Of a stretch of DNA of 64,000 nt, positions 13,203 to 53,768 are shown piece by piece. Position numbers and translations under genes: made by a program. This DNA is from a virus. Each line of letters opens with the position of its first letter. Within the stretch, counting starts at the first letter, position 1. The notes beneath the pieces were generated by a model. The model was not told the origin of the DNA. It saw only the letters and a program-made list of their open reading frames with translations, and did no database searches. The stretch spans positions 32,001-96,000 of the IMG/VR virus record IMGVR_UViG_3300047170_000049. One strand, written 5' to 3'.

Positions 13203-13360
13203 GTGAAATTGCTGAATGGGTGCTAGCCCAGATGCACGAACCATGCGAATTTTGCGGGTTACATCATATTACCCCAGAAGATGAGCGCCAATGTGAAGAA
13301 CTCATGGAAGAAATGTTCAATAAGAAATTGGCTAAAGTAATTGAAGAACTAAACCGATAG
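13199..13360 (+). CDS. small CxxC protein
   Basis: GTGA overlap; PCEFCG. Confidence 0.4.
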   Translation: MSEIAEWVLAQMHEPCEFCGLHHITPEDERQCEELMEEMFNKKLAKVIEELNR

Positions 13361-15477: not shown

Positions 15478-15710
15478 ACATTTATTTCAAATACTGGCTT
15501 CCTAAAGACGTTGATGTAGAAGTAATGGAATGGTACGGTATTCGTTTTGGTAGGCATTCAAAAAGTCACAATTATAATGCCTGGGACCTGAATATTGTCA
15601 TTCCAGGTAAAGGTGTATACGAATTAACGATAACAGATAACCATGCGAAATTTCTCAAGGAATGGGGGAAAGACTTTAAAATTGTGGTTGATTGGCAATT
15701 ATTCCCTTAA
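15474..15710 (+). CDS. hypothetical protein
   Basis: Coupled ORF, RBS GGGG. Confidence 0.55.
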   Translation: MNIYFKYWLPKDVDVEVMEWYGIRFGRHSKSHNYNAWDLNIVIPGKGVYELTITDNHAKFLKEWGKDFKIVVDWQLFP

Positions 15711-15733
15711 GTTTTAAACATAAAAACCGATAG
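15707..15733 (+). promoter_or_regulatory. sigma28/FliA-like promoter
   Basis: TTAA-GTTTT(N15)-ACCGATAG. Confidence 0.55.
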
Positions 15734-22066: not shown

Positions 22067-23602
22067 TTATTTCTTACGTTCGATAATATCGAGCATATCT
22101 TTGATAGTGTCTTTGGGTTTAGGCTGTTCTTCTTTGGGTACCTCTTCCGACTTAGGAAGGTTAGGCTTTGGCATATTTTTAAGTTCAGCTAAAACTCTCT
22201 TAGCTTCTGGCTTTGCTTGTTCTTCAGGTAGTTTGCCCATTTTTGAAGTACCGCGACGTTTAGGTGTTTCACCCCTTGGGGCATGGACACCTTTTTCATC
22301 AGCCTTTTGCATATTCTCAGAATTCATTCGATTTTCTTTGGGTTCATCTTGAGTGGGGCCACCAGCGGCAGAATCGTGCGCTGGCATAAGTGGCTTACCC
22401 ATTTCACTCATTTGCATATCGCACTTATCGAGGCAACGTTTTAGAGCCTTGAGGTTATGCTGTATGGCGTTCTTTTGGAAAATCTTATGGCCTTCTTTTT
22501 GTTCAGCGGGTTTGTTGGCAATCATATGGTCTTCAACCAAGTGCTCAACATTTTCGCCTAATTTAGCATCTTGTTTTTCATCAGGATTAGCTTCACTCAT
22601 AAGAACCTGTGGTTTATTCAAACCGTCTTCTAATGACTCAGCTTTACCAAAGTGGAAAGCATCACGCATGGATTGCTGTGCAGCTTGAGCGCCTGATGGA
22701 GGTGGAGGTGGTGGTTGATTAGAACCGTCTTTTTGTAACTCCGACTTAGGAAGATTAGGTTTAGGCATTTGCTTCAATTGATTGAGCTTTGATTTGTGTG
22801 AAGCGATTGAAGGTACGCCGCTAGCTTGTTGCGCAGCACCAGCATGGCTTTGGCCAGAATTTGGTTGAACAGGAGTGTGAACCCCTTGTTGCATATCGGC
22901 TGGATTACCTTTTAATAGTTTATGCAATCCCTTTAGATGACGGTCGATAGGTTGTGCCATAATGTCTGCCTTTTGTAAGGTTTCTTCAATTGCTTGCAAC
23001 TTTTCTAATACGCTAGCCACGGTTGGCTTATCTTCTGCTTTTTCAAATAATGTTCCAGGGAGTCTGGTTTGAGGGTCAACTTTTTTAACTGGTTTTGGTT
23101 GTGGTTTTGGTTGTTCGGGCATTTTCTGTCCTGCAGCGGCAGCGCCTGCTTGTGCAAAACCATCAATAATGGCTTTAACTGGTTTTTTAACCATATCACC
23201 TAAAGATTTGTGCATTCCCATACCCATTCCCATATTAACTGAAATGTGAGGTGCGGTATTAGCTGGTTTGGCAGGAGCGCCAGTGGAAGTTCCACCAACT
23301 ACTGCGCCTTCGGATTTAGGAAGGTTAGGCTTAGGCATATGAATTAATTGATGCAATTGTTTCAAATGACTTTGTTTAGCTGAGTGATTCATAACCCTGG
23401 AAGCTGCAGCAACATCTCGTTTGGCAGAAACGGGTGTAGTCATCTTGTCAGAAAGTTGTTGGAGCTTGTTAGAGCTTCTGACTTCCATGCCAGCGGTCGA
23501 TTGACCTTTTACATCTGGTCTAGCTGGGTGGACACCTGCCTTATCCAAATCGTAGGATGGTTGAAACTTGTCTTCTTTTTTGAGGTCTTTTTTGTCTGCC
23601 AT
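22067..23602 (-). CDS. disordered repeat protein with three MPKPNLPKSE modules (putative processed head protein)
   Basis: Start MADKKD preferred; K/P/Q-rich; many LxK[A/S] sites. Confidence 0.7.
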   Translation of the reverse strand: MADKKDLKKEDKFQPSYDLDKAGVHPARPDVKGQSTAGMEVRSSNKLQQLSDKMTTPVSAKRDVAAASRVMNHSAKQSHLKQLHQLIHMPKPNLPKSEGAVVGGTSTGAPAKPANTAPHISVNMGMGMGMHKSLGDMVKKPVKAIIDGFAQAGAAAAGQKMPEQPKPQPKPVKKVDPQTRLPGTLFEKAEDKPTVASVLEKLQAIEETLQKADIMAQPIDRHLKGLHKLLKGNPADMQQGVHTPVQPNSGQSHAGAAQQASGVPSIASHKSKLNQLKQMPKPNLPKSELQKDGSNQPPPPPPSGAQAAQQSMRDAFHFGKAESLEDGLNKPQVLMSEANPDEKQDAKLGENVEHLVEDHMIANKPAEQKEGHKIFQKNAIQHNLKALKRCLDKCDMQMSEMGKPLMPAHDSAAGGPTQDEPKENRMNSENMQKADEKGVHAPRGETPKRRGTSKMGKLPEEQAKPEAKRVLAELKNMPKPNLPKSEEVPKEEQPKPKDTIKDMLDIIERKK

Positions 23603-23609
23603 ATAAACC

Positions 23610-24071
23610 TTATTTTTTATCTTTCGCTTCAATGACAACTGGAGAATTAACAAATTCAGGTTGTGTGGTCGTTAATGGAGCATTTTGAATCATAGGTTGA
23701 TTACCAATCCTAGGAGCAATGTCTTTGGCTTCCGATTTGGGTAAATTGGGTTTCGCCATATTCTTAAGGTGATTTAACAAACCACGGTGAATACTTTTAG
23801 CTTTTGCAGCATGTCTCTCAGGGTCACTGACTCGACCGTAGCCGTGTGCAATAACACCTGGAACTTTTGCATCGGCTCTGCGAACTTCAATACCGACATC
23901 GCTTACGCCTGGAGTAACAGTCTTTTGATTCTCTAGGGCATCACGGCCTTCGCTATCAAATTGTTTAAATGCTCCGCGAATCATTCTCTTCTCGGAATCA
24001 CTTACGGTCTTTTTTAGCTCCGCTAGTTTCACTAGACGTTCCAGTATTGCTTTCATCATTAGACTTTCCAC
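23610..24071 (-). CDS. putative head protein with one MAKPNLPKSE module (probable start 24059)
   Basis: Same module as neighbouring gene. Confidence 0.65.
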   Translation of the reverse strand: MESLMMKAILERLVKLAELKKTVSDSEKRMIRGAFKQFDSEGRDALENQKTVTPGVSDVGIEVRRADAKVPGVIAHGYGRVSDPERHAAKAKSIHRGLLNHLKNMAKPNLPKSEAKDIAPRIGNQPMIQNAPLTTTQPEFVNSPVVIEAKDKK

Positions 24072-25654: not shown

Positions 25655-26422
25655 TTAGGTTTTTGACTGCATCTCTTGGATGAAAGCAGACCATAGAGCG
25701 TCTATCTTTGCTTCAGCTTCTTTAAAGGCACCAAGTGGCTTAGTTCCAGGGTGCCACCATTTACCAGTACCTTTTTGTTTTTCTGAAACAACACGGAAGG
25801 TAAAGATGTCGCGCATGACTTTAGTCTTGCCGTTTTTCATCTGCACTTCGCGTTGATAGATATTGACGCCTGCTAAGAGTGGAATCTTAGAACGTATGGA
25901 GTTGGCGAATTCCATATCGACGGTGGCAGCGGCGACTTTGCCTAATTTAGGCTTTCCGTCATCATCGAGTATGGTTTTATTTAGCTTAAGTTTTTTAAGT
26001 TCACTCTTAACGTGTTCAGCTAATTGCATTTCAGCACGAGACATATCTTGTGGTCGTTTATTGTGCTTGAAAGGAATGATTGCGTACCGCTTACCGTCTT
26101 TACCCACTTTAGACTTAGGGCCGTGAGTTAAGGCTTCAATCATGTCATGGGCAGGTTGACCGTCTTCAATCCAGTTGGCTTCAGGTTGAAGATAAACAAC
26201 CCAAACGCTATCATTTTCGCTACTAATTTTTAGAGCGTCCATGTAAGTGCTTAAAGATGAATGCAATGTGTGGGTGGCCTTGTCAGTGATAAACGCATGG
26301 GTTTCTAAAGCAATGCGTTTCAAACCCATCTTTGATTGCTCAATAAGGGATTCGGACATATTGTCGATAGTCTTGCCTAGAGCTTCTAGCTCCGCTTCTA
26401 TGCTTAAATCTTTTTTTGCCAT
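25655..26422 (-). CDS. putative neck/tail-completion protein
   Basis: WIEDG, YAIIPFKH, TFRVVS...WWHPG motifs typical of myophage neck proteins. Confidence 0.6.
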   Translation of the reverse strand: MAKKDLSIEAELEALGKTIDNMSESLIEQSKMGLKRIALETHAFITDKATHTLHSSLSTYMDALKISSENDSVWVVYLQPEANWIEDGQPAHDMIEALTHGPKSKVGKDGKRYAIIPFKHNKRPQDMSRAEMQLAEHVKSELKKLKLNKTILDDDGKPKLGKVAAATVDMEFANSIRSKIPLLAGVNIYQREVQMKNGKTKVMRDIFTFRVVSEKQKGTGKWWHPGTKPLGAFKEAEAKIDALWSAFIQEMQSKT

Positions 26423-29400
26423 TATTTTTTCTTCTTATTATCAGGATGGTTGGCAATTTGAAATTTTAAAGCCTGCAAGTCGTGATGGTCTTCTTCTCTG
26501 TTACCAGTATGAGACATTTTTTCTTCAAGTTCATCGTGGTCTTGCTGAAGTTCCTTAAGAGGTCTGATTTTTTCAGATTGTTGCAAGGGTTGACCTTGAG
26601 AACCTTCGTCGGGGTCATTCATGGTTGATAGAGATTGCCATGAACCATCAGGCTTTTTAATCTTTTCATTACCTGGACCATAAGTTCTCTCTGAACCTGG
26701 AGCGTAAACCTTCTTACCGTGAGTAATGGGTTTATCTTTTGGAGCGCTAATTTGTGGAGCTTGACCTTGCTGTTGCTGCGCTGGCGCTTGTTGTTCTTGG
26801 CCTGGTTGAGCATTGGGGTCTTGTTCTGGAGCTTGCAATTCATCGGGATTAATTTGCGCTTCTTTCATCGTAGTCATTAGAGACTGGATGATTTCTGAAA
26901 TTGCATTATACACATCAGGAGCTTGTGAACGTAGTTGTTCAATCAACATCTTGTTTTGGTCAAGATTTTGTAGCGTTTGCGCTAATTGAGCCTTAGTAGC
27001 ATCACTGATGGGTGATGGCGCAGGTTCGGCTTTACGAATAATATCTTTGTAAGTGGGCTTACCCTTAAACTCAGGATTATCTTGCGTGGGGAGTTCACCA
27101 TAATGGCCTTCTTGATATTTCATCGCCTTGGGAATCTTACCGTAACCTTCTTGCATATGTACTGGTAATGGAACTTCCAAATCAGGATGTTCGCCACCAT
27201 GTGATGCAGCATAGTCATTATGAAACTTAGTATAGGCTTCTTTTAATTGGTCCAAATGCCCAGGAGTAACTTCTTTGTTATTAGAAGGTACGATTTTGTT
27301 CTTTTGACCCCAACGTAGGATAGCTTTGCCGCCCTGTCCACCTTGACCTTCTTTTAACGCATCAATTTCTTCGATAACTCTATTAGGATGAACCTTAATT
27401 GATTGTTGTTGACCAGAAATTGGTGCCTTAGATTCAGGCTGCCAAATATGAATTGGAGTATCGCCTAAACCCTTGTTACGCATATGCTCTTTGAACGCTT
27501 CGTGAATAACTTCACTTGGATGACGCCCATTGAATGCAATTTCTTGAATTTTATTAAGATGGTCTTCTGGAAAATTATCTTTTGCACGTTCCATTGCATC
27601 GGCAGCTTGCTCAGGAGTGATTGCTCCAGTGCGAACGGCTTCCTTAGCTTGCTGTGCCGCTTTCTTAATAAGTGACTGACCTAAATCAGTTTGAACTTCA
27701 TCAACGTGGAAGCCTTCACCAGGATTACCAGTGAAACGCACCCAGCCTAATGTATTCTTTTTAACAGGGTGGCCAGAAGAGAATGTATGCTCTTGCAACT
27801 TACGGAATGTACCTAGAACACCAGCTTTTTGCATTTGTTGAAGTTGGTCTTCAGTGTAGTTCATTTGGAAAACATTTTGTTTCTTGTCGCTATGTCTTTG
27901 AGCGCCTTCCCAATCTGCAATTGAGGAATTGTAGGTGGTGGCAGGCATAGCATCAATGTGATTTTGAATGTCTTGTGAAGTAATCGTTCCTTTAGGACCG
28001 AAAAGCTTGTCAATTGCATTGGTGTTAACACCAGCGGCCTTGAAGTCTTGCTTCTTCATTTGTCCACCATTAGCAGCAACGTAATCTCTTAGTTGTCGTA
28101 ATGGGTGGGTTCCAAGCTTAACATTTACTTGGTTTTCATTCTTAGGGAAGCGATTAGCATAAACACTTTGAACGGCTTCACGAACATCTTCATTTGGATG
28201 ATTCGCTAAACTATCTACTTGTGGACGTGTAGCAGCATGATGACTAATAGCTTCAGCTTTTAATTTATCATTATCCCCACTTAAAGCATTTTGAATATCA
28301 TCTGGAGTAAGCTTAAATTTGTTATCAAAAATCTTCTTAGCAGTGTAACGGTCAGTATCGTTACTGTCTTTGGTAGCAGCTAAAGCCTTACGAGCATGTT
28401 CTTCATTTGCATTAGGATGGTCAAGTATAGTTTCAATATCTGAGTCATTGTCTTTAGCTATGGCTTGGTCCAACGCTCCATGAAGGTGTTCTGCATTGGC
28501 ATTAGGATTTTTAATAGCTAATTCTTTTAAAGTTTTACTGGCATTAGGATTAGCAATAACTTGAGAGATATGCTCTGGGCGCACATTATTATGGCGCATT
28601 ACATCTTCTTGAGCCTCTTCAGAATAATTGTCATTGTTGTTATCGGCCAAAACTTTGGAGATTAGTTCAGGAGGTAGGTTGGGGTGTTTGGCCGCTTCTT
28701 TACGAACCATACCAAGTGGATGCTTTAATCCTTGGTCTAATTGCTCAGGAGTTACATCGGTGGAGTTCTTACTCCATGGCTGCTTTATAGCCTTAACGAC
28801 ATGATTAGGTAGCCAATCTTCTTGTGAAGTGGCGTTCTCTAAATCATTTTCAAAAAGGTCATGAGTTCTTTGACTAACGTCATCGTTTATGGACTCATCG
28901 TAGTTTTCATACAACTGGTCAGGGGTTTGTTCATTATCAATCGCTTCTTGCCAAGCCTTGTCAGCTTCTGCATCGCGTTTGGCATATTCAGGATGGTCTT
29001 CAATACCAATACTATTGCTGTGATTTGCATAGTCAATAGTAGGAGGCTCTTGCTCTTCATTAGGGTCTAGATTTTGCTGACCATCTTTATATTCTGGGTT
29101 TGGACCATTCCAATCATATTTGTCAGCTAGATGTTCTTTCTTCCAGTCTTCTTTAGACTTATCGAAGTACGCATTAGAAAGTTCATCGTCATTGTAGTTG
29201 TCACTTATAAACGATTTCCAAGGATAGTTCTCGGCAGCATCTTCACGAGCTTCTTCGCTATAACGTTCCCACTTATCGTCTTCGTTCTCGTCACGAACAC
29301 GGTCTCTAAAGTCATCTAAAGCATACCCCTTACCATCATCATCGTTATCCCAATGTGATAGCATTTCAGTAGCGTGCTTGGGGTCAACTTCGGAGTTTTG

Positions 29401-30348
29401 AAAAAGATTATACTTGGAATCAAAATCACCATGATGTTTAATATGTTCAATAGCTTCAGGTGTTAGATGCCTACTTGCAGCTAATGATTGCATCATCTTT
29501 TTATCATAATGCTTACCATTAGTCCAATTATTCCATTTAGCAGCTTCCTCTGAATCCATATCACCAGGATTATAAATATCCTCTGGTGATTTTTCAGGTT
29601 GACCGCCAAGCATACCTAATTTGGCTTCAACATACGCCTTGCGACGTTCGGGTGGTAATTTATCTAACAAGCCGTTGAGGTCTGAGGAACTGAGACTGTG
29701 TGAGCGTGCTAAGAGTTTAGCCGCTGCATTTTCGTCAAGGTGCTGTGAGTTAGTAATAGACCCAGGTAATTTTTCCGATTCATAATTTTTTGATTGTAAA
29801 AGCTTATCGAAAAGATTCTTGGTCATTGCAGGATGATTGACCATTTGATTAGATATGGTGGCTTGTGGATTATCTAGAATTTGGTCTAAGTGTTGGCTGT
29901 TAAATAAAGGCTGCTTTGTTATATGGCTCAGGTCAACTTTGTTGTCAACATCTGCGCGTTTTGATTTTGCGCCATGCTCTTTAATAATTTTGCTGATTTT
30001 TTCTGGGGAAAGCTTCAAATATTCTATGGCGTTTTCTGCGTTACGCTTATCCCAATAATCATCGTCTTTATTTGTATTTTTAAGCTTCTCAGCTAGAGCG
30101 TCATAAATTTTATCATTATTTGCTGGAGTATCGTGTTGGTGACCCTTTAGCGCACTATAAAATTTAGTAATAGCAGATTCATGGTTATCTTCTGAAGAAT
30201 TAAAAGCGTTAGACAATAGGTCACGATATTCTTGAGGTGTGAAGTGCTCAGAATTAATGTATTTTTGTACTTGTGCTTCCTTTTCAGGATTACTGAGGTC
30301 AGCGCCAGTAAAAACACCATGTATTCTTTTTGTCTTAGCTTTTGGCAT
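26422..30348 (-). CDS. large putative internal virion (polyvalent) protein, 1308 aa
   Basis: HPN-type helical (LRV/HEAT-like) repeats, acidic region, LGWVRF...HVDEVQTD domain, RKAE site then helical APDVY domain. Confidence 0.65.
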   Translation of the reverse strand: MPKAKTKRIHGVFTGADLSNPEKEAQVQKYINSEHFTPQEYRDLLSNAFNSSEDNHESAITKFYSALKGHQHDTPANNDKIYDALAEKLKNTNKDDDYWDKRNAENAIEYLKLSPEKISKIIKEHGAKSKRADVDNKVDLSHITKQPLFNSQHLDQILDNPQATISNQMVNHPAMTKNLFDKLLQSKNYESEKLPGSITNSQHLDENAAAKLLARSHSLSSSDLNGLLDKLPPERRKAYVEAKLGMLGGQPEKSPEDIYNPGDMDSEEAAKWNNWTNGKHYDKKMMQSLAASRHLTPEAIEHIKHHGDFDSKYNLFQNSEVDPKHATEMLSHWDNDDDGKGYALDDFRDRVRDENEDDKWERYSEEAREDAAENYPWKSFISDNYNDDELSNAYFDKSKEDWKKEHLADKYDWNGPNPEYKDGQQNLDPNEEQEPPTIDYANHSNSIGIEDHPEYAKRDAEADKAWQEAIDNEQTPDQLYENYDESINDDVSQRTHDLFENDLENATSQEDWLPNHVVKAIKQPWSKNSTDVTPEQLDQGLKHPLGMVRKEAAKHPNLPPELISKVLADNNNDNYSEEAQEDVMRHNNVRPEHISQVIANPNASKTLKELAIKNPNANAEHLHGALDQAIAKDNDSDIETILDHPNANEEHARKALAATKDSNDTDRYTAKKIFDNKFKLTPDDIQNALSGDNDKLKAEAISHHAATRPQVDSLANHPNEDVREAVQSVYANRFPKNENQVNVKLGTHPLRQLRDYVAANGGQMKKQDFKAAGVNTNAIDKLFGPKGTITSQDIQNHIDAMPATTYNSSIADWEGAQRHSDKKQNVFQMNYTEDQLQQMQKAGVLGTFRKLQEHTFSSGHPVKKNTLGWVRFTGNPGEGFHVDEVQTDLGQSLIKKAAQQAKEAVRTGAITPEQAADAMERAKDNFPEDHLNKIQEIAFNGRHPSEVIHEAFKEHMRNKGLGDTPIHIWQPESKAPISGQQQSIKVHPNRVIEEIDALKEGQGGQGGKAILRWGQKNKIVPSNNKEVTPGHLDQLKEAYTKFHNDYAASHGGEHPDLEVPLPVHMQEGYGKIPKAMKYQEGHYGELPTQDNPEFKGKPTYKDIIRKAEPAPSPISDATKAQLAQTLQNLDQNKMLIEQLRSQAPDVYNAISEIIQSLMTTMKEAQINPDELQAPEQDPNAQPGQEQQAPAQQQQGQAPQISAPKDKPITHGKKVYAPGSERTYGPGNEKIKKPDGSWQSLSTMNDPDEGSQGQPLQQSEKIRPLKELQQDHDELEEKMSHTGNREEDHHDLQALKFQIANHPDNKKKK

Positions 30349-30351
30349 ACA

Positions 30352-31356
30352 TTAGTCTTTCTTCAACAAGGTCATCAAAAGGTTATACTCAGGATTACTT
30401 TGGAGTAACTTCCTTTTAGCTTTGTGACGGGCCATGTGAGCTTTCATACCCTCATCGGCCTTATTCGCTTTTTCTTTAGCGTCATCTTCTGCACTAGACA
30501 TAAGTGCATTGTTTATGTCTTCACTATGGTCTGGGGTCTGGATAGTAGGCTGGACCTGTCCTTGCTTAATATCCGTAGCAATACCCACTAATGAAGATAC
30601 CACATTTACGACCGATTCGTAGATTTCTGGTGCTTCCGTTTTAACTTTATCTAACATTGGCTTATTTTGCTGCACACTTTGTAAAGTCTGCATTAACTGT
30701 TGTTTTAATTCAGGTGGCAAAGCATTCCCAGGTGAAGCGGGTTGACCAGAATCTGGTTGTTGTTGACCAGATTGTGGTTGTATTGACTGGGAAGGGTCTT
30801 GAGCCACGGCAGCGGGTGCTTGTGGCTGTGCAGGTTGTACGGACGCACCTGAAGGGTTTAATTGTGCAGGTTGAGGGTCGGTTGAATTAGTTTCGCGTAT
30901 TAGTTCTGGATTAGGTGTGCTTAGGTCTGAGGCTTCTAGACCTTGTTCAGGGTAAAGCTCATCAGTCTCATCTTCCATGGGCTCTTCATTTTCAAATTCC
31001 ATGTCAGGTTGATAAACTTTAATACCATGGGCATCGTTAGCTTCTAAGTTAGCTAATGCTTTTTCAGCATCTTCTAGTGAGTCGCCTACCCCAATTAAAA
31101 GGTCTTTATCTAATACAATTTTGAATTGTTTTTCAATGTCGTTAAGGGCATCAATATTGTCGATGTCTAATTGTACGACAGTATTGCCTTCGAGCATTGC
31201 TACAACTTCGCCTTGCTTCTGTGCAATGACAGAACGTATTAGGCGATGCAGCATTTCCTTGTGGCGCATAAGCCACTTAGCGTCGGTTATGTTACGAGCT
31301 TCTTCTAGGAAAGGTGCTGATATGATGGCGACAATTTTATTTTCTTCCATTGGCAC
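30352..31356 (-). CDS. degenerate mCpol/GGDEF-fold protein with Q/P-rich linker
   Basis: GEVV...IGVGDSLEDAEKAL...IKVY resembles mCpol; catalytic DGD/GGDE not present. Confidence 0.55.
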   Translation of the reverse strand: MPMEENKIVAIISAPFLEEARNITDAKWLMRHKEMLHRLIRSVIAQKQGEVVAMLEGNTVVQLDIDNIDALNDIEKQFKIVLDKDLLIGVGDSLEDAEKALANLEANDAHGIKVYQPDMEFENEEPMEDETDELYPEQGLEASDLSTPNPELIRETNSTDPQPAQLNPSGASVQPAQPQAPAAVAQDPSQSIQPQSGQQQPDSGQPASPGNALPPELKQQLMQTLQSVQQNKPMLDKVKTEAPEIYESVVNVVSSLVGIATDIKQGQVQPTIQTPDHSEDINNALMSSAEDDAKEKANKADEGMKAHMARHKAKRKLLQSNPEYNLLMTLLKKD

Positions 31357-32365
31357 GACTCATCAATGATTTATAAAGCATCTCTATAGAATCCGTGTCC
31401 CAATCTTCCTTGAATGACATTGAAATGGCTGCGCCTTCAGCTTTAATGACAGGTTCTGATAGTGCTTTGAAGCAAGCGCATCTTACTGGTGTGCCGCTTT
31501 TAATTTCTGACTCACCACAATCTGGGCATGTGCTATTTTGTGACTTGTTAAGGCTCATCTTAAGAGACTTTACGAACGGATTTGGCACTTTAGGCCCCGT
31601 TTGTGGAGCTTTAGCGGCAGTTCCAGGAGCTTTAAGGTTTGGCAGCTTCATCTTAGAAGGCTTAAGGTTGGCATCTGTAGCTGGGGTCTTATCACCCATG
31701 ATGCCAGTCTTAGGTTCTTTTACGCCACCAGCACTACCAGCTTTTGGAGGTGCAGGCATTGCAGGCATCAATCCTGCTTTATCAAGTTCGTCGGTCTTAA
31801 TTGTTAGTTCAGGAGCTTTAGATTCTTTGGAGTGAGCCACAACACGCATAAGGTCATCAACCTTATCGTTAAGCATCTGCATCTGGGTATCATTAAGCTT
31901 TTGCTCTAACTCGTCAATTCGTTCATGTACTGAAGAATCTTCTTTGGCTGATTTTTCTTCTGGTTTCGATTTTTCGCTTTGGTCTGGTCCCATTTGAGAA
32001 TCTTCATAAAGCTCAAATGTAGACATGATGTGTGCAGCAAGTTGTGGCAGTGCTGTAAGTCTAAATTCATGTATGATTTTTCCACCGTCACGGATGTGTC
32101 CGTTGTAAACGTCGGCGGTTTGTTTATTAACTAGAAGAAAGCAATTTTCTTTGAATGGAAGGTCAATCTCTTTATTTCCGTGCTCAGGAATAGGCTTTAA
32201 CTCTTTAATTAGGAACGAAATTAAAGCTTTAGGTACAACCTTCAGACTTGCATGAAGCTCTTGTAAATCCACTACGGATTTCGTAGGGATTTTGTCCAAG
32301 GCTTTCGCCAAGGCTTCGTATGGTTGTTCGCCCATTAGGGCTTTTAGAAGCTTAATCTGTTCCAT
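31337..32365 (-). CDS. putative head protein with C-terminal Zn ribbon
   Basis: CPDC...CAC; LDKA, LNKS, FVKS sites. Confidence 0.6.
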   Translation of the reverse strand: MEQIKLLKALMGEQPYEALAKALDKIPTKSVVDLQELHASLKVVPKALISFLIKELKPIPEHGNKEIDLPFKENCFLLVNKQTADVYNGHIRDGGKIIHEFRLTALPQLAAHIMSTFELYEDSQMGPDQSEKSKPEEKSAKEDSSVHERIDELEQKLNDTQMQMLNDKVDDLMRVVAHSKESKAPELTIKTDELDKAGLMPAMPAPPKAGSAGGVKEPKTGIMGDKTPATDANLKPSKMKLPNLKAPGTAAKAPQTGPKVPNPFVKSLKMSLNKSQNSTCPDCGESEIKSGTPVRCACFKALSEPVIKAEGAAISMSFKEDWDTDSIEMLYKSLMSRANGRK

Positions 32366-34821: not shown

Positions 34822-35466
34822 TTACTCCCAGAAATTTCCAGGCAAGTGCCCTTTGGGTACGTTTTTATTTTTCATACGGTAATCATCTTCCAATTTTGAA
34901 CCATGGAAAGGCTGAGGTTCATTGAAGTAGACTTTACCATCGGGGCCTTGTTCTTTGTTGTACATATGTTGAGCACCAAAGGCTTCATGGGCTTGTTGTG
35001 GATTCATGCCTGCCATTTGATAGTGCTTAATTGCTTCGTTCTTATGATACTCACCAGCCAAGTGATTATTAATATCTTTACCTTGGTCGTAGTTATCTTT
35101 ATGGAAGTTTGAAAAGTGAGCGTGCCAATTAGCAATTTTCTTATGGTTCTCAGGAGTGGAGGCGTGTGGCATGGAGCGAAGCTCTGCATCGTGCTGTATG
35201 GACGAGACGTTGCCCCATTGTGGGTTGAATTGCCTATCGGTAGACTTGTAAAGATTCTCGTGCCAGCTAATACCGTTTTGAACCTTATCCGCCATACCCT
35301 TGGCAACGGCACGGTGAGCGGCTTGTCCTAGGACTCTTAGTTCGCCTGAAGCTTTCTTCAAGGCCATAATGTTTAATCCACCCTTGGTACGGATGTGATA
35401 AATAGGGTCGGTCTTGTAAACGCCGACTTGTTCCATAGTGTGAATGTCTTGTTTGTTTAAATTCAT
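34822..35466 (-). CDS. putative head protein
   Basis: TKGGL...AAHRAVA N-domain, LYKS site, His-rich C-domain; after late promoter. Confidence 0.6.
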   Translation of the reverse strand: MNLNKQDIHTMEQVGVYKTDPIYHIRTKGGLNIMALKKASGELRVLGQAAHRAVAKGMADKVQNGISWHENLYKSTDRQFNPQWGNVSSIQHDAELRSMPHASTPENHKKIANWHAHFSNFHKDNYDQGKDINNHLAGEYHKNEAIKHYQMAGMNPQQAHEAFGAQHMYNKEQGPDGKVYFNEPQPFHGSKLEDDYRMKNKNVPKGHLPGNFWE

Positions 35467-35487: not shown

Positions 35488-35518
35488 ATTAAGATTTTAG
35501 GTTAACCCTTTGATTTTA
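35488..35518 (-). promoter_or_regulatory. late promoter motif copy 7
   Basis: ATTAAGATTT-TAGGT-TAA-CCCTT-TGATTT. Confidence 0.75.
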
Positions 35519-37646
35519 TTGCATCTTTGACGGCTGGAATACCCCATACCCAAATAGAATTAATCAATGAATCAGGGTATTTAGACTGTTTTACCAATTC
35601 TTTGATTTCTTCTAGACGGTATAGTTCAGGGCTTGGGTCTAACTTATATTTAAACATAAGTTCTTTGATGAGGTTTGGGTCTAGACGTAGAATCCAGTCG
35701 CGAAGTTCTTCTGCGACCTTGGGATTTCTAATACGAGGTAGGCCCTGGAACTTAGTTTCATTATTAGAGTTTTGCTTAACGTCATTTTCTACGCGCAAGA
35801 TGTATGGGATGAAGATGTCCGTGTCTTTAGAAGGGTCGAAGGCAAGATTGGCAAAAGAAGACCCGTGGTCAATCATTTGCAAGCCCTTGCCGTTTGTCAT
35901 GACATTACCGCCATGAGAATCAGCTTCGCCTAGGATGTAGAACATGGTGGCTATTTTATGGACAACACCTTCACGGGTGAGTTCGCCAATGAGTGCCTTG
36001 AATTCATGTTCGTCATCTTTTTCAAGGTCTTGCGCTATCTTGTAATCGTCGGGTAGCATTTTGATTGCTACGGCATAGTGAGGCTTACCATCTTTTTGGA
36101 TTTCACCCATAACTGAATGTGGAATGTAATCAACCAAACCAAACACACTATGGGCTAGTTTATAGAAACAGGCTTCTTTAATGAATTGAGGGCCAGTATC
36201 TTTTAAAGACTTAACACCAGGCTTATTCTTAGGTTCGAGTTTTAAGAGCCATGAGTCTTTAGGTTCGTCGCCGACGATAAAGGAATCTGTGGTGAAATGG
36301 CCATAGTGACTTAGGTCATGAATCTTCTCGTCACGGATTAGCGAATTGATATTTTGTGTTGCTACTATGGAGTAATCATCTTGAGTCAGTGGCTTAAAGA
36401 ATTTAATGCCAGCAAACTTTTGTTCAATCTTTTCTAGAAGACCTTCTTCTTTAAGGAAGGAGTCCAGGCTCGAACCTAGATGTTTATTTTCGTTCTTTGT
36501 CATCTTAGGTTTAGCATCGGCAACTTCACCGTAATTATGTATGTTGCCTTTTGCATCACGTTGTGGTTTAGTCTGAAACTTCAGATTTTTAGAGTTGATA
36601 TTGAAACTTGCAGTGGGATGGCCAACAACAATTTCATTTTCATGCGAATGGGGATGTTCTTGGCCTTGGACGGTCATGTGATGACCAGAGTGAAGGACTT
36701 GTTTCAGTGGCACCCATTTGGACATTACCACCCCATGATTATCTGGTTGACCTTCAATATGCCCACGATTATATGCGAACCTCGCTGCCATTTCTGGGTC
36801 CGTTGTCCACGACGTTAAGTGTGCTGTGGGTAATTTTATTTTTTTATCGTCAACCTCGTTAGTTTCGGGGTTATGACCTACTGCATCTTTAATTGCTTTG
36901 CCATAATGCCCACCGACCCCACGATAAAGTTTGACATGAGGCTCACCATGAAAATAACGTTTAGGTGTGAATTTATCTTGCATTATTTCAGCTTGAACTT
37001 TTTTAGCGTACTCATCTAGGTGAGGAAGAACATCAGAGGCTTGCATGAATTTATTGGGGTACTCAAATTTAGTATTTTTTAAATGTTCTAAGGTTTCTTT
37101 GTCATGACCCATCAATCCATCAGGGTTGAGATAAGCTTCGTGACTATTGGCAGATTCGCCACGGTGGTCCGTTACCGTTTCAGGTTGACCCGTGAAATGA
37201 GACTTAATGGTCGCGAAATGACCAGGGCTAACCGCTCTTTCGTAGCTGGACCAAAAATTCCCAACCTTCTTCATGTTTGCCAAGGCTTCATCGGGCGCAA
37301 ATTTGGGATGGGTTTGTATTGCGTTGGTGACGTACTGGTCTTCACGACCTTCGTGACCCACACGCCTTAGTGTGGCAGCATCAGCATGCTTAGGGATGTG
37401 TCCAGCGTATTCAAATAGAAACGAATTGAGATTATCTTTTTGATTAGGACGAGTCTTAAGATGGTCTAGGACTTTGTGAACTGCAGCATTAGGCATACCT
37501 TCGCCGCCGTCATTGGGATTATTGGCCGAAGGAAGGCGCTGCCAAATGTCGTAGTTAGCTGGCACACGTTTAGCATGCTCAATGGCTTTATCCCAGTCAC
37601 CACGATGGATGGCTTCAAAAGTTGCTTTCTCATTTGAGTCAGACAT
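35502..37646 (-). CDS. multidomain protein: ADP-ribosyltransferase-like + HipA/PI3K-like kinase
   Basis: KLYRGV...TSWTTD...ENEIVV (R-S-E ART); LKLE...KEAC...DSHGGNVM...IDHGSSF (kinase). Confidence 0.75.
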   Translation of the reverse strand: MSDSNEKATFEAIHRGDWDKAIEHAKRVPANYDIWQRLPSANNPNDGGEGMPNAAVHKVLDHLKTRPNQKDNLNSFLFEYAGHIPKHADAATLRRVGHEGREDQYVTNAIQTHPKFAPDEALANMKKVGNFWSSYERAVSPGHFATIKSHFTGQPETVTDHRGESANSHEAYLNPDGLMGHDKETLEHLKNTKFEYPNKFMQASDVLPHLDEYAKKVQAEIMQDKFTPKRYFHGEPHVKLYRGVGGHYGKAIKDAVGHNPETNEVDDKKIKLPTAHLTSWTTDPEMAARFAYNRGHIEGQPDNHGVVMSKWVPLKQVLHSGHHMTVQGQEHPHSHENEIVVGHPTASFNINSKNLKFQTKPQRDAKGNIHNYGEVADAKPKMTKNENKHLGSSLDSFLKEEGLLEKIEQKFAGIKFFKPLTQDDYSIVATQNINSLIRDEKIHDLSHYGHFTTDSFIVGDEPKDSWLLKLEPKNKPGVKSLKDTGPQFIKEACFYKLAHSVFGLVDYIPHSVMGEIQKDGKPHYAVAIKMLPDDYKIAQDLEKDDEHEFKALIGELTREGVVHKIATMFYILGEADSHGGNVMTNGKGLQMIDHGSSFANLAFDPSKDTDIFIPYILRVENDVKQNSNNETKFQGLPRIRNPKVAEELRDWILRLDPNLIKELMFKYKLDPSPELYRLEEIKELVKQSKYPDSLINSIWVWGIPAVKDAIKSKG

Positions 37647-39724
37647 TATTTATCCCAGTTGTGCGTCGCGTTCATCATAACGTGCTTATCGTCAATAAGT
37701 ACGTCTTGTGCAGGTTTAACATCATGCTTCTCGTTTTTAACTGAAGCAGGTGAACGTTCGGCGTTCATTGCAAAGTTGCCTAATTTCTTAAATTTGTTAA
37801 ATTTTACCACATAAGGATGGTTCTTGATTTCATCGGGGGTAGCATCAAGTGCGTGGGTAATCCCATTGTACCAAGCGTAAGCCGCTTTATCATGGTCGTT
37901 ACCAAAGCGGTTTAAAAGCCTATGCCAATGGGCATGGACTAATTGCTCTTCCATTTTCTTATTTCCTAAAACCAACTTGGAAATTTTCTCTTGGTCCATC
38001 TTAGGGTCCATTGAGCCAAGTTCAGGATAGAGCTTTTTAATGTGGGGATTCTTCTGGGCAGTCTCAACAATAGTAATAGGCATAAGGCCGTAAGAGCCTA
38101 TGGCTTTCGTGCCAGTGTTGATGCCGTGTACAACTTCAGCGTGCTTTAAATTTTTACCGTTAGAAGATTCAATATTCTTGATGGCATCTAAATCGCCCTT
38201 GGCAGTGTCAACTACTTGGATACCAGGCTGACTCTTATCTTGGCTACTTAAAGCCGTAGGAGCGCCGAGCATTGACATTGCCGTGATAACGTTCATAGCT
38301 TTTGTCTTCATGTTCTTATCCAACCCTTCTGATAAAAGTGTATCATAAGGCTGGCTTAAAGTCTCTATTTTGCTTATTTCCGTATTTTTCCTAACGTTTT
38401 CAATGGCTTTGAGCTTATCTTTTTTAGTAAGCTCCGCTTTCTTAGTGTCTTCAGTGGCTAAAGCCCAGTCAGGAAGCAAACCAGCTTTCTGGTCAGCGTA
38501 AATTGTTTGCGCGGGGTTAGCTCTATTGTGCGCTGCGTGCTTACCAAAGTTAACCCATGAGTTCTGGCCGCGTGTTTCTGAGGTCAGGGCCTTTTGTGCT
38601 TGAGGTGAATACATCTGCTTATGGCTAAGGTATGCGTTCTCTTCGCCTTTGGGACCAAATCCATAACCTTCTTTAGCGTGGCCAAAATAATCGTGGACTA
38701 TACGGAAGAGGTCGTTAGCGGGTAAGTCTTCGCCATTATGAATAACGCCTGAAGGTTTGAGCATTGGGTGATTGGAGTATAGTGAATCTCCAGAACCAAA
38801 ACCTTGTTCGGTAGGGTAGTACCACATATGATTGTTTTGGCGAACGTCTTGGAGCATATCTTTAGATGATTTATAGGGATTAGCCATGTCTGGTCTAATC
38901 TTACTGATTTTTAAACCAGCATTTTTAATGTGATGAAATTGTTCTGCCGTTTCATTGATTAGTGCATTGTAGGCACGTTTAGTTTCAGGATGGTCAGGGG
39001 TGTGGGGCATGGCTTCGTAGGCCGCTGCAATGTTCTTAGCACGAGGCACGTTGACTTCTGCTTGGGTGTCTGGATGATTTAAAGTCAAACCTTTCGACTT
39101 GGCGTAATTGTTAGCGACGCTTCTAATTTTAATATCGGGTTGAGTTGGGGTAGGTGGCTTGAACGCATCTGCCTTGCGAAGGTTACGGTACTCAATCTCG
39201 CCCTTGGCCATCTTATAGCCATTGGCATTAGGCTGCTTGTCAGACCAAAGGACTTTATCTTCTTTCCAAAGCTCTAATGGCTTAACCTTGACGTTTAATT
39301 TGTGTTGGGGCATTCCCGCTTGGACTTTATCCCAAAGGTCCTTATCCACCGTTATATGAGGCTGGAACGTGGGAAATTTATCTGGGCCATAATGGTCTTG
39401 AAGCTTCTTGTTGGCTTCTTCCATATGTTTGATACCAGGGCCTACGAGCTTAAGGACGTGCCATGTCTTACCTTCTGGGGTATTAAACTTATGGGGCACT
39501 AGCTGGAATTGGTCAGGAGGGGTTGTATTGAGTTGATTTAGGTGGTGTTCCATTTGCTTCACGTCGGGCTCATGGGCTCCTAAGTTTCTTAGGGTGACGT
39601 GGTACTTACCGCCATTTTCTGGATTGATAGCTTGGCCGTTGATATGAACGGGCCACATCAAATAGTGCTCTTTCCACGCTGGGTCTTGCGCTTTTACATT
39701 TGAAACACTAGTCTTCGTGGGCAT
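37646..39724 (-). CDS. multidomain protein: 2H phosphoesterase + HDxxGH domain + lytic transglycosylase-like
   Basis: HVTL and HITV; FRIVHDYFGH; IESSNG...AIGSYGLMP...YAWYNG. Confidence 0.75.
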   Translation of the reverse strand: MPTKTSVSNVKAQDPAWKEHYLMWPVHINGQAINPENGGKYHVTLRNLGAHEPDVKQMEHHLNQLNTTPPDQFQLVPHKFNTPEGKTWHVLKLVGPGIKHMEEANKKLQDHYGPDKFPTFQPHITVDKDLWDKVQAGMPQHKLNVKVKPLELWKEDKVLWSDKQPNANGYKMAKGEIEYRNLRKADAFKPPTPTQPDIKIRSVANNYAKSKGLTLNHPDTQAEVNVPRAKNIAAAYEAMPHTPDHPETKRAYNALINETAEQFHHIKNAGLKISKIRPDMANPYKSSKDMLQDVRQNNHMWYYPTEQGFGSGDSLYSNHPMLKPSGVIHNGEDLPANDLFRIVHDYFGHAKEGYGFGPKGEENAYLSHKQMYSPQAQKALTSETRGQNSWVNFGKHAAHNRANPAQTIYADQKAGLLPDWALATEDTKKAELTKKDKLKAIENVRKNTEISKIETLSQPYDTLLSEGLDKNMKTKAMNVITAMSMLGAPTALSSQDKSQPGIQVVDTAKGDLDAIKNIESSNGKNLKHAEVVHGINTGTKAIGSYGLMPITIVETAQKNPHIKKLYPELGSMDPKMDQEKISKLVLGNKKMEEQLVHAHWHRLLNRFGNDHDKAAYAWYNGITHALDATPDEIKNHPYVVKFNKFKKLGNFAMNAERSPASVKNEKHDVKPAQDVLIDDKHVMMNATHNWDK

Positions 39725-39759: not shown

Positions 39760-39790
39760 ATTAAGATTCTTATATAACCTATCGGAAGCA
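39760..39790 (-). promoter_or_regulatory. late promoter motif copy 8 (variant)
   Basis: ATTAAGATTC-TTATA-TAA-CCTAT-CGGAAG. Confidence 0.6.
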
Positions 39791-39827
39791 TTCAGGAATA
39801 CTTAAGGGATTTATTGTGATTATTTCC

Positions 39828-46216: not shown

Positions 46217-46274
46217 TTTGCAGGTATCGGGTGCGAACCGACGTTTAAGACCGCCAATCTTGTGTCCCTGCAAA
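46217..46274 (-). ncRNA. tRNA-like structured element lacking a D arm
   Basis: TTTGCAGG/CCTGCAAA stem, AAGA-TTGGCGG-TCTT arm, GTCGG-TTCGCAC-CCGAT T-like arm, intergenic. Confidence 0.4.
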
Positions 46275-49995: not shown

Positions 49996-51378
49996 TTAAC
50001 TGTTACGGAGGTTGTCGATAAGGATATTGAAGCGAGGAAGTTTAACAACTGTAGCGCAGAATCTAAAGCTAACTTTAGGAATGCTGAGGTCAGTCATAGC
50101 AAGTTGCATTGACTTGTAAGGGCTGAGTTCAGCAATTTCAAGACCGCGCATATCTAACATAAACCCAGTAACGAAACCAGGGGTTTTGTTATTGAGGTCG
50201 ATGAAAGCAGTGGTAGCTCCACCAGAGTTAACTACTCGACCAATCCAACGTAAGCTGCTTCCACCTGCATCTGAACGATACATATTGAAGTGCTTGGCGA
50301 AAACGCCTGAAGCTGGGGTGATGGTAGCAGTTACGCTATTGCCAGAAGCACCAATTGTGATGGGGCTAATAGCAGTTGCAGGGGATTCACCAATTTCGTT
50401 AACTGCAGTACAAAAGTATTGATAAACTTCGTTTGCGTTGAAAGAGGTTGTTCCTGCAGCTTGTGCAAGAGCGATGGTAGGGCTGTTAGGAGCACCGATA
50501 CGGGGACGGGCTACTGCAGTTTTACCAGAGAGGAAACGGCTTGATTCGATGCTAACAACTGAATCAGCTACTGCTTGCTCTTTCAAGCTTGCACCAGTTG
50601 ATTGTTGAGGGCTTCCTGCGAGAACGATACGTTCTTTGGGGAAAGCAATCTTGTTATAAGCGCCGTGTGTCAAGGGGTCAATGTACAATTTCTCAGGAGA
50701 ACCGTGGTTCATAGCAGCTTGTGCATATGAATCTTCGATGATTCCTTGAGAAAGGATACCGTTCTGGTTGAATACGATTGATTTGTTTGAACCGTACTCA
50801 TTGAACATTAAGTCTTGTGTTGAAGACAAATAATCTGATTGACGAATTTGGGGGTCAAGACCTTGCATTCCAGGGGTTGTTGACATTGCGAGGGGGTTAC
50901 CGTCGAAAACGCCAGCATTGCTGAAAGCTTCTTTACCACGGAATACTTCAAATTCGATGTCGCCAGCGATTTTCAATGCACTGTCTGCTTCAGCGCGGTC
51001 TTCGGATTTAACTCCGTCGAAAGCTTGAATCATTGTGGATTGAACAGTCACTCTACGAACTTCAGCGTAGTATGCCATGGGCACCACTGAACGAACATAG
51101 CTTGAGGTTTGTTCTTGTCCGACAGAGCCTTCAAGCACTGCAGAACCACCGAACACACCGTAATCAAGTTGACGGTTGAATTGTACTAAGGTCCCCTTAG
51201 CTGGGTTCACCTTAAGAAGCTTTTGCAACTTAATGTGTTTATCTTCGTAGGTAGCAACGTTCATTACAGGAGAAAGGTCTTCCATCTGTAATGCGCTACC
51301 TTGGTTTAGAGCACTGGGGGATACGTTATATCCACCTGCTTCTAAAGCTTTTTTAAGGGCTTCTAATTGTTCAATCAC
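49996..51378 (-). CDS. major capsid protein
   Basis: LKKA|LEAG...GSALQMEDL N-terminus and Ig-like insertion (YFCTAVNEIGES), as in SPO1/K-like MCPs; order portal-protease-scaffold-MCP. Confidence 0.9.
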   Translation of the reverse strand: MIEQLEALKKALEAGGYNVSPSALNQGSALQMEDLSPVMNVATYEDKHIKLQKLLKVNPAKGTLVQFNRQLDYGVFGGSAVLEGSVGQEQTSSYVRSVVPMAYYAEVRRVTVQSTMIQAFDGVKSEDRAEADSALKIAGDIEFEVFRGKEAFSNAGVFDGNPLAMSTTPGMQGLDPQIRQSDYLSSTQDLMFNEYGSNKSIVFNQNGILSQGIIEDSYAQAAMNHGSPEKLYIDPLTHGAYNKIAFPKERIVLAGSPQQSTGASLKEQAVADSVVSIESSRFLSGKTAVARPRIGAPNSPTIALAQAAGTTSFNANEVYQYFCTAVNEIGESPATAISPITIGASGNSVTATITPASGVFAKHFNMYRSDAGGSSLRWIGRVVNSGGATTAFIDLNNKTPGFVTGFMLDMRGLEIAELSPYKSMQLAMTDLSIPKVSFRFCATVVKLPRFNILIDNLRNS

Positions 51379-51380
51379 GG

Positions 51381-52226
51381 TTATGACTCCTTCTCAATAA
51401 GTTTTAAGATAGTTTCTTTACCCTTTTTATGAAGGTAAAAATCTACGATACTGTCTCGTTCGTTCTTAGTTAATGTGGGCTTACGGCTAATGGAAGTTAA
51501 CTTAGCGTGAATTTCCTTATCCGTTAGAGGCTTCTTGTCTTCAGATTTTTGAAGACTGCCTTCGCCTGGTTTAGCAACATGATTAATGTCAGTCACAGCT
51601 TTGCGAACTGGCTTGTTAATCATCTTCTCGAAAAGCTCTGTAACTTTTTCGAGACCAGCTTGAAGCTTCTTGGTTTCAGTCTCAGACTTAGCAAGCTTCT
51701 GTTCTAATTCTTCAACCTTAGCGTTATCCTTTTCAGACATTTGCAAAGGTGCAGATGCTGAGGGGGATGGTGCAGGGGCTGCAGGACTAGCTGAACCCAT
51801 ATCTGCAGGAGCGGCTTCTGGAGATGGAGATGAGCGTTTAGCCATTTCCATTTTGCATTTTTCCATAAGGTCCTGGAGTTTTTCGGGGTCAAGGTCAGCT
51901 AAGAGTTCTTCTAAGCTGCCAAAGTCTTGGTCTTGTTGACTGTCACTTGCTTCAGGTGAAGCAGGTGGAGTTGCGCTTGAATCAGAAGCTTCAGGAGAAG
52001 GTGCAGGGGCAGAAGCACTTGCATCGTCTTTCTTCATTGACTCTTCTTTTTCTTTTGAAGATTCTTCTTTGGATTTTTCTTTGGAAGATTCTTCTTTCTT
52101 AGCGAGTTCGGCAGCTTCAGCTTTTTTAAGCTCTTCTGCCTTATCCGTTTCTTTCTTGATTAACACGTCAAGTTCGCCAATGGCTTCCTTAACGAGTTTC
52201 TCAAGGTCAATTTTTGGTGTATCCAT
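51381..52226 (-). CDS. capsid scaffolding-like protein
   Basis: E/K/S-rich coiled coil with many LxK[S/A/K]E sites, upstream of MCP. Confidence 0.7.
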   Translation of the reverse strand: MDTPKIDLEKLVKEAIGELDVLIKKETDKAEELKKAEAAELAKKEESSKEKSKEESSKEKEESMKKDDASASAPAPSPEASDSSATPPASPEASDSQQDQDFGSLEELLADLDPEKLQDLMEKCKMEMAKRSSPSPEAAPADMGSASPAAPAPSPSASAPLQMSEKDNAKVEELEQKLAKSETETKKLQAGLEKVTELFEKMINKPVRKAVTDINHVAKPGEGSLQKSEDKKPLTDKEIHAKLTSISRKPTLTKNERDSIVDFYLHKKGKETILKLIEKES

Positions 52227-52808: not shown

Positions 52809-53768
52809 TTAATGTTTTTTAGAATTATTCAATTTCGCGTAAATTTCCATAGCTTCTGCCTCGTTAGCGGCATAGAGCTTGTTGGCTAGCACAGCTTCCA
52901 CTTTTTCTAAGTTCTCCTCAGATAGGGTAGGAAGATGTTTTCGCATTTCAGTACGGGTTAGCTTCTTTTTCTTGAAAATTTTCACTAACTTAGCTAACTC
53001 AGTATCGAGTCCTTCCTTTTGCAAGGCAGGCCCACTTGAGAGGGCTGAGGGAGTGGCACCCATTCCACCAGCGGAGATTGCCTTTTTAAGTCCGCTGAGG
53101 GCATTGGATAGCTGTGCATATTGGTCAGGTCGTACTGAGTCCTGAATTATATACACTTCATTGTAAGCCGATTTGTGCAAGGATTCGTGGCCACCATTGG
53201 CAGTCGAGTAATCCATAGACTTGCGGACTCCTTGGTGGGATTCCTGCACAAATTCAACTTTGGCGGCTCTATTACAAGGCTTGTGCGTTAGCGCAAGTCT
53301 ACGAATAGCCGTTTCTTTTAAAAGATTTCCTTCACGTTTAACTGTAGAACCTTCAACGCTAAAGCCAAGTTGTTGTTCAACCCCAGCCGATTCAAAGTTG
53401 CGTATAATAGATGCGGCAGCTTTGGCGTTTGGATGATTCTCGTCATCAAAGATTTCTACTTGGCCCCAAATGAGTGGGACCTTGAGTTTCTTAAATGCTT
53501 GTAATTCTTGCTTATTTGAGCAATCTTTTTCGCTAAAGATTTTCTTAGCGTTCATGACCCTACCGACGATAGACTGAAAGCCTTCAAAGCCTTTGTTTTT
53601 CTCATCTTTTAGGTCTTCTGGGTTGATATGCTCCGTATTAACTAGAGCCTTTCCTGAACGTAGCTCTTCTATGTCAGCACCCTTAACATCTAGGACTTCG
53701 CCTGAAGTATCGGGGGTTTGCGCTGAAAAGACACCAGCCAGTATTAGATTTTTCTTAAGGTCACTCAT
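52809..53768 (-). CDS. prohead maturation protease
   Basis: DTSGE, NTEH, GFSVEG, ALTHKPCN motifs of HK97/U35-like proteases. Confidence 0.85.
   Translation of the reverse strand: MSDLKKNLILAGVFSAQTPDTSGEVLDVKGADIEELRSGKALVNTEHINPEDLKDEKNKGFEGFQSIVGRVMNAKKIFSEKDCSNKQELQAFKKLKVPLIWGQVEIFDDENHPNAKAAASIIRNFESAGVEQQLGFSVEGSTVKREGNLLKETAIRRLALTHKPCNRAAKVEFVQESHQGVRKSMDYSTANGGHESLHKSAYNEVYIIQDSVRPDQYAQLSNALSGLKKAISAGGMGATPSALSSGPALQKEGLDTELAKLVKIFKKKKLTRTEMRKHLPTLSEENLEKVEAVLANKLYAANEAEAMEIYAKLNNSKKH

Follow-up and report, generated by a model that had tools for sequence, protein, structure and literature searches.

A phage open reading frame that joins a divergent ADP-ribosyltransferase to a type II PI4K-like kinase, a candidate cargo protein of an Mx1-related phage

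The DNA analysed here, referred to as the window, is a stretch of 64,000 nucleotides (nt) comprising bases 32001-96000 of the 159,288-bp IMG/VR virus record IMGVR_UViG_3300047170_000049, which was rated complete by CheckV. Its minus strand carries an uninterrupted open reading frame (ORF) of 714 amino acids (aa) and 80.9 kDa that begins with ATG, a start backed by the alignment, in which its N-terminus lines up with those of its homologues. From the N- to the C-terminus the ORF encodes a helical domain, an ADP-ribosyltransferase (ART) module, a linker and a kinase (Table 1). An initial annotation of the window had reported Arg-Ser-Glu (R-S-E) ART motifs and kinase motifs within this single frame, and every motif quoted there, including the K...E pair of the kinase, was found to translate within the range assigned to it. 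Judged by their conservation among the representatives described below, these motifs are more than chance occurrences. Scans of the ORF with Pfam, PHROGs and NCBIfam yielded only a sub-threshold PI3_PI4_kinase/RisK1 match at aa 562-600, sequence searches of the PDB with the ORF (phmmer) and with the family profile yielded nothing relevant, and literature searches retrieved no description of the ORF protein, its family or PI4K(II)-like phage kinases.

The ART part was modelled with AlphaFold2 using 29 homologues as input, and reached a predicted local distance difference test (pLDDT) of 90.4 and a predicted template modelling score (pTM) of 0.86. Apart from helical repeats, all structural matches to residues 119-384 were ARTs, including ExoS (score 6.9), TreTu/TreX (6.7-6.9), C3bot2 (6.7 over 148 aligned residues), Vis (6.3), Certhrax (6.3), C3cer (6.2), iota Ia (6.1) and EcPltA (6.1). 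Foldseek matches to the PDB were weak (E ~0.05), the top-scoring ones still being ARTs; against predicted viral structures they went down to 2e-6 and included proteins named ADP-ribosyltransferase, Alt and VIP2 as well as a MuF-domain protein. Independently, a structure search of the ESM Atlas returned DRAT (TM 0.52) and clusters of PF01129/PF03496. In the model, which shows the split beta-sheet and N-terminal helical lobe of the ART fold, R242 belongs to strand 235-244 and S279 to strand 277-281, with helix 284-296 coming next, and strand 338-342 starts with E336-x-E338. Canonical ARTs have their catalytic residues laid out in this way, with Arg on the first strand, Ser-x-Ser/Thr on the second and (Q/E)-x-E ahead of strand 5 (PMC13617354). 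Among representatives clustered at 50% identity, to which all conservation counts refer, R242 was kept in 108 of 111, S279 in 111 of 112, E336 in all 113 and E338 in 111 of 113, that is, each in at least 97%.

At the sequence level, no ART family (Pfam PF03496 and PF01129 included) was detected at E-values up to 1 in the ORF and 19 relatives. Profile comparison assigned the ORF to neither of these two families nor to the ART sequences of the PDB, among which the family profile found none, and library hidden Markov models did not recognize aa 1-400. The only sequence bridge to Alt was the R-to-S segment of relative P0087, which weakly matched phrog_832 'RNA polymerase ADP-ribosylase' (E 0.0018). 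VIP2, iota and C3 enzymes presumably have local patterns similar to the Y-R-G, S-x-T...A..F and E-x-E-I-V-V of the ORF. The ART module is a divergent representative of the R-S-E type that constitutes its own uncatalogued family. As its E-x-E is invariant, arginine specificity is predicted by analogy. Four histidines around the putative ADP-ribosylating turn-turn (ARTT) region, H319, H323, H333 and H343, were kept in about 88-97% of ~110 representatives, and H113, H143 and H161 likewise in ~89-96%; such a conserved cluster is unusual for R-S-E ARTs, a metal site being one possibility. The helical domain always accompanies the ART core, even where the module is internal in longer proteins, and is for this reason regarded as a part of the ART module and not as a terminal tag. 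A capsid-targeting role of aa 1-170 as a tag was rejected on the same ground, since the module is found both internally and in tandem.

The model of aa 401-714 (pLDDT 91.3, pTM 0.90) displays a kinase with a full helical C-lobe, whose closest fold is that of the type II phosphatidylinositol 4-kinases (PI4KII). Foldseek returned PI4KIIalpha (1.8e-6), followed by PI4KIIbeta, phosphatidylinositol 3-kinases (PI3Ks) and Vps34; MavQ was also among the closest structural relatives, and the next-best folds were CtkA, HipT/HipA, Fam20, CotH and actin-fragmin kinase. With 12.4 bits the ORF scored below the gathering threshold of PF00454 (27.1), which was exceeded by relatives P0040 (36.4) and P0049 (40.7), and P0027 carries a precomputed PF00454 label. 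The D-x-H-x-x-N loop, the metal-binding Asp of 'DFG', the beta3 Lys and the alphaC Glu were all present, with D576, N581 and D593 kept in each of 120 representatives, E491 in 118, H578 in 111 and K469 in 104 of them. K529, the lysine of 'AIKM' that is obvious by eye, was considered as the ATP lysine and rejected, being conserved in only 57 of the 120; as it is not conserved, K469 is the likely ATP lysine. The kinase had been annotated as HipA/PI3K-like, of which the PI3K/PI4K lineage stands and the HipA likeness does not: HipA-type kinases scored far below PI4KII and were not the closest fold, and no HipA Pfam family, HipA_C included, was detected in the ORF. As modelled, the domain is an active-looking kinase of the PI3K/PI4K lineage, type II PI4K-like and not HipA-like. 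No relative of this kinase turned up when 185,579 bacterial and archaeal species genomes were scanned with the patterns used.

An exhaustive search for the ART and kinase families together yielded 522 clusters, each with one representative at 50% identity, at E-values up to 1e-3, with 88 of them at 1e-30 or below. Among 173 sequences, ~62 combine ART and kinase, 39 have the ART only and 54 the kinase only. In most of the combinations a lytic-transglycosylase-like domain stands between the two enzymes, other orders and tandem ART modules also occur, and long relatives additionally bear GNAT, NUDIX, SAM-lyase-like and ART-PolyVal domains. In the window this middle domain has its homologue in the C-terminus of the preceding gene. 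At least two unrelated catalytic domains are hence united in one phage polypeptide and shuffled among relatives, and such shuffling is the behaviour described for polyvalent proteins (PMC5512222). When 12 kb were compared by megablast with 50,697 phage records no match was obtained, and the sole match of the ORF in a tblastn search of cultured phages was a 'kinase' of Myxococcus phage Mx1, the nearest cultured phage, whose capsid protein is 55% identical. In the equivalent slot of Mx1 (OR576727.2, 24404-30710), this 620-aa 'kinase', which matches aa 442-705 of the ORF with 26% identity, adjoins a 1480-aa 'NUDIX hydrolase'. Virion proteomics of Mx1 or of the phage carrying the ORF was not found in the literature.

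The strict motif [LIMVF]-x-K-[SANK]-E (h-x-K-[SANK]-E) was tested in the 29 homologues (~25,000 residues), and nearly all of its occurrences fell into two alignment columns, at the junction of ART and linker in 10 sequences and at that of transglycosylase and kinase in 21, with four occurrences elsewhere. In the window the motif was found 20 times in 17 head/cargo ORFs, compared with 3.8+-2.0 in composition-preserving shuffles, none of 500 of which reached 20, and was absent from the 26 other ORFs, in which 2.5 were expected. The scaffold-like protein and the portal are among its carriers (Table 1), and a near-match, LKKAL, is seen close to the N-terminus of the capsid protein. The ORF contains a single site, MTK384↓NE; it marks the start of the inter-domain linker beside the stretch in which both models drop to pLDDT <50, and a cut between K384 and N385 would give computed fragments of 43.3 and 37.6 kDa. 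This distribution is statistical evidence for a shared protease site, not proof of cleavage, and it suggests a prohead protease that cuts after Lys. The linker contains a peptide, ..KHLGSSLDSFLKEEG.., that forms a short helix in the model, is specific to the ORF protein and is absent from the closest homologue P0002. Residues 223-253 of the 319-aa head protease, a segment of ~30 aa in its C-terminal third, closely mimic the N-terminus of the major capsid protein (..GLKKAISAGG..PSAL..GPALQKE.. versus ..ALKKALEAGG..PSAL..GSALQME..).

On the minus strand the ORF is preceded by terminase, portal, protease, scaffold-like protein, major capsid protein, several unknowns, a phrog_772 protein with similarity to a tail fibre family and the 692-aa gene, and is followed by a 214-aa gene, a phrog_1004 virion protein (head-and-packaging PHROG category), further large unknowns and the tail sheath; it is, as are polyvalent proteins, encoded with head and packaging genes. 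The ATG of the ORF overlaps the stop codon of the 692-aa gene (TAATG), so the two are predicted to be co-transcribed and probably translationally coupled. The 2H-phosphoesterase of that gene was recognized by PF13563 (E 1.5e-4) and TIGR02258 (E 5.9e-4). Twenty-seven IMG/VR contigs of 15-182 kb contain the kinase-bearing gene, which in most of them keeps a conserved position between the capsid and the sheath genes, flanked by homologues of the phrog_772 protein on one side and of the 214-aa and phrog_1004 genes on the other, while the domains ahead of the kinase differ. In 17 of the 27 loci the kinase gene has the N-terminal 60-80 aa of the 214-aa gene product immediately behind it, and in P0007 that product is fused to the kinase protein; the 214-aa protein may serve the kinase as a partner or an inhibitor. 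It gave only a very weak 'doc_partner' match (E 0.14), and an ESM Atlas search with this downstream ORF returned nothing usable. Further downstream, two ORFs that overlap by 44 nt both bear the repeat P-N-L-P-K-S-E, three copies of it in the longer one, and may represent one frameshifted gene or a repeat-bearing cargo polyprotein.

Table 1. Position of the ORF, its parts and other features in the window
Feature	Position (strand)	Residues	Remarks
ORF	35502..37646 (-)	714 aa	helical domain, ART module, linker, kinase
Helical-repeat domain (CID/VHS-like)	37296..37646 (-)	aa 1-117	
ADP-ribosyltransferase module	36507..37292 (-)	aa 119-380	R242 (36921-36923), S279 (36810-36812), E336-x-E338
LYRG	36918-36929	R242	
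SWT	36804-36812	S279	
ENE	36633-36641	E336/E338	
Histidines around the ARTT region	36618-36692 (-)	aa 319-343	H319, H323, H333, H343
Inter-enzyme linker	36399..36506 (-)	aa 381-416	low confidence; pLDDT <50 at aa 386-407
Predicted prohead-protease site MTK384↓NE	36489..36503 (-)		sole h-x-K-[SANK]-E in the ORF
Linker peptide	36420-36503 (-)	aa 382-409	
Type II PI4K-like kinase domain	35535..36398 (-)	aa 417-704	K469, E491, D576-S-H-G-G-N581, I-D593-H-G
beta3 Lys	36240-36242	K469	
alphaC Glu	36174-36176	E491	
DSHGGN	35904-35921		
IDHG	35862-35873		
Preceding gene	37646..39724 (-)	692 aa	2H-phosphoesterase-like N-terminus, phrog_3170 middle, lytic-transglycosylase-like C-terminus
Following gene	34822..35466 (-)	214 aa	
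Scaffold-like protein	51381-52226 (-)		6 junction motifs
Portal	55253-57274 (-)		3 junction motifs, two at the C-terminus
Repeat-bearing ORF	22067-23653 (-)		5 junction motifs
Overlapping repeat-bearing ORF	23610-24071 (-)		
Head/cargo ORF	26422-30348 (-)		listed with junction motif
Head/cargo ORF	31337-32365 (-)		listed with junction motif
Head protease	52809-53768 (-)	319 aa	
Major capsid protein	49996-51378 (-)		
Sigma28-type promoter-like motif	39780..39805 (-)		TTAAG-N15-CCGATA; the preceding gene starts 56 nt further on
Sigma28-type motif	13332-13359 (+)		
Sigma28-type motif	15707-15732 (+)		
Sigma28-type motif	46225-46248 (-)		
Sigma28-type motif	54980-55004 (-)		
Sigma-factor-like protein	62783-63772		

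Consensus scans of the window for sigma70 promoters and terminators gave no signal above chance, the T4 late-promoter box TATAAATA was not enriched and GTTATATAAG was not recurrent. A sigma28/FliA-type motif, [CT]TAA[AG]-N13-17-CCGATA, occurred five times compared with 0.58 expected, a number reached in none of 200 simulations, and four of them immediately precede an ORF start; CCGATA alone was found 32 times (16+-4 expected), and the window encodes a sigma-factor-like protein. Two of the five motifs are located in the non-structural region. The ORF had been described as lying downstream of a late promoter. No such element is placed directly upstream of it, the only promoter-like element is the sigma28-type motif ahead of the preceding gene, and the assignment of the gene as 'late' rests on gene position.

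Taken together, we regard it as reasonably probable that the product of the ORF is a 'polyvalent' two-enzyme cargo protein from a ~160-kb contractile-tailed, Mx1-related phage, that is, a host-modifying ART and kinase that would be packed, cut and ejected. The ORF, both folds, the conserved catalytic residues, the modular family, the position in the structural module and the junction motif with its distribution are established directly; catalysis, substrates, packaging, cleavage and ejection are what we infer from them, and would run as follows. The gene would be transcribed together with the preceding 2H-phosphoesterase/lytic-transglycosylase gene and the 81-kDa precursor would enter the prohead, where the prohead protease would cut at MTK384↓N385 in the disordered linker; at the next infection both enzymes would leave with the DNA, aided by the neighbouring transglycosylase. 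The N-terminal 43 kDa (helical domain and R-S-ExE ART) would use NAD+ for the mono-ADP-ribosylation of arginines in host proteins, by analogy with ExE enzymes, and the C-terminal 38-kDa kinase would use ATP for the phosphorylation of host proteins, which are its predicted targets because the host is a bacterium. The purpose may be host takeover or counter-defence. Two host-modifying activities in one protein had already been proposed in the initial annotation, by comparison with T4 Alt and the T7 kinase; this idea is supported by the conserved catalytic residues and by the Foldseek comparison suggested there, whose matches to ARTs (weak against the PDB) and to PI4KII agree with both domains.

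Instead, the substrate of the kinase might be a lipid, as for PI4KII and MavQ, or a small molecule, for instance an immune signal derived from a nucleotide; the enzyme would then work at the host membrane or quench signals as a counter-defence beside the 2H phosphoesterase. We consider this unlikely, while it is the most credible of the alternatives. To our knowledge most bacteria have no phosphoinositides, and the next-best folds, from CtkA to actin-fragmin kinase, are all protein kinases, as is the known phage precedent, T7 gp0.7 (PMC5512222).

It is improbable that the same two enzymes remain unpackaged, being made late and acting only in the producing cell like T4 ModA/ModB or T7 gp0.7, where, ahead of lysis, they would remodel proteins of the host or block its defences and the prohead protease would play no role. 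For such a protein speak three points that weigh against the packed cargo: nothing shows packaging, no capsid-targeting signal was found, and ART and kinase modules also stand alone (39 and 54 of the 173 sequences). Its counter-arguments are the conserved capsid-to-sheath slot in most of the 27 contigs, the frequent fusion to a lytic transglycosylase, which is of use only at entry, and the junction motif, which is common to the scaffold-like protein and the portal, has a near-match in the capsid protein and is missing from non-structural ORFs.

A similarly low probability is given to an ART that acts on RNA, DNA or a small molecule, or just hydrolyses NAD+, in place of modifying protein arginines. 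Equal-ranking fold matches include Tpt1, an RNA 2'-phosphotransferase, and the Rhs toxin family, some members of which target rRNA or tRNA (PMC13617354), and the cluster formed by H319, H323, H333 and H343 is no feature of classical protein ARTs. The longest structural alignments, however, are those with the protein-targeting enzymes C3, iota, ExoS and Vis, and the E-x-E is invariant. In characterized R-S-E enzymes (cholera toxin, iota, Alt-type) E-x-E goes with arginine-specific protein modification. Least probable is a place in a tail or ejectosome complex (T7 gp14-16 or tail-tip lysin-like), in which the enzymes would ride an envelope-penetrating structure and not be free in the head: the fused or adjacent lytic transglycosylase and the tail-fibre-like phrog_772 protein just upstream would fit it, but the scaffold-like protein and the C-terminus of the portal, which the prohead protease would encounter within the prohead, carry the junction motif too, and the downstream neighbour matches phrog_1004 of the head-and-packaging category.

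Beyond the cargo protein proposed for this ORF, a broader and rather doubtful proposal is that the capsid-to-sheath slot of Mx1-like phages is a cargo-enzyme cassette (ART, kinase, transglycosylase, 2H esterase, GNAT, NUDIX and others), in which prohead-protease joints would let recombination swap effectors freely, which would make it the phage equivalent of polymorphic toxins. A phage-restricted kinase, the nearest relative of eukaryotic type II PI 4-kinases in the prokaryotic world, would be the member that stays constant, and its substrate may be a lipid or an immune signal and not a protein. The analysis brings to light two large phage enzyme families, the R-S-ExE ART and the type II PI4K-like kinase, that no Pfam, PHROG or NCBIfam model assigns to the ORF, and the close fold match to human PI4KII raises the question of the origin of that supposedly eukaryotic kinase family. 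How precursors would be split within the capsid could be captured by a simple rule open to testing, h-x-K↓[S/N/A]-E where domains join, and the presence of the kinase in the equivalent slot of the cultured phage Mx1 allows direct tests of packaging, cleavage and targets.

Among known systems, the ORF protein is assigned to the class of polyvalent, virion-packed effectors (PMC5512222, PMC9503650), as surveyed by Iyer, Burroughs, Anand, de Souza and Aravind in 2017 (PMC5512222). It shares with them unrelated enzymatic domains in one chain, a location beside head and packaging genes and predicted packing and injection, and it differs from them in both enzyme families: the kinase of the survey is of the Ser/Thr/Tyr type without a C-lobe, whereas that of the ORF is PI4KII-like with a full helical C-lobe, and the ART of the ORF is R-S-ExE, an Alt-style catalytic signature that is now found inside polyvalent proteins, where the founding survey called it absent (PMC5512222). 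Compared with C3/VIP2/iota/ExoS mono-ARTs, the module is 10-15% identical, has S-W-T for S-T-S, a histidine-rich ARTT region and an extra N-terminal helical repeat. The kinase is 12% identical to type II PI4Ks (PI4KIIalpha/beta, PF00454) and is encoded by a bacterial phage, the hosts of which are generally without phosphoinositides. T4 Alt is a head-packed and injected arginine-specific ART that is cut by the prohead protease; the R-S-ExE signature and the myovirus structural gene block are common to both, as would be the predicted head-protease processing and delivery with the DNA. Unlike Alt, the ART of the ORF is fused to a kinase, and its predicted cut, h-x-K↓, differs from the T4 prohead cleavage motif L/I-x-E↓; an hhalign comparison of the ART family profile with T4 Alt (probability 0.2%) revealed no relation. 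T7 gp0.7 is an early and non-packaged protein, unlike the proposed packed product of the ORF. In function, the ORF protein resembles T4 Alt and T7 gp0.7 in one chain.
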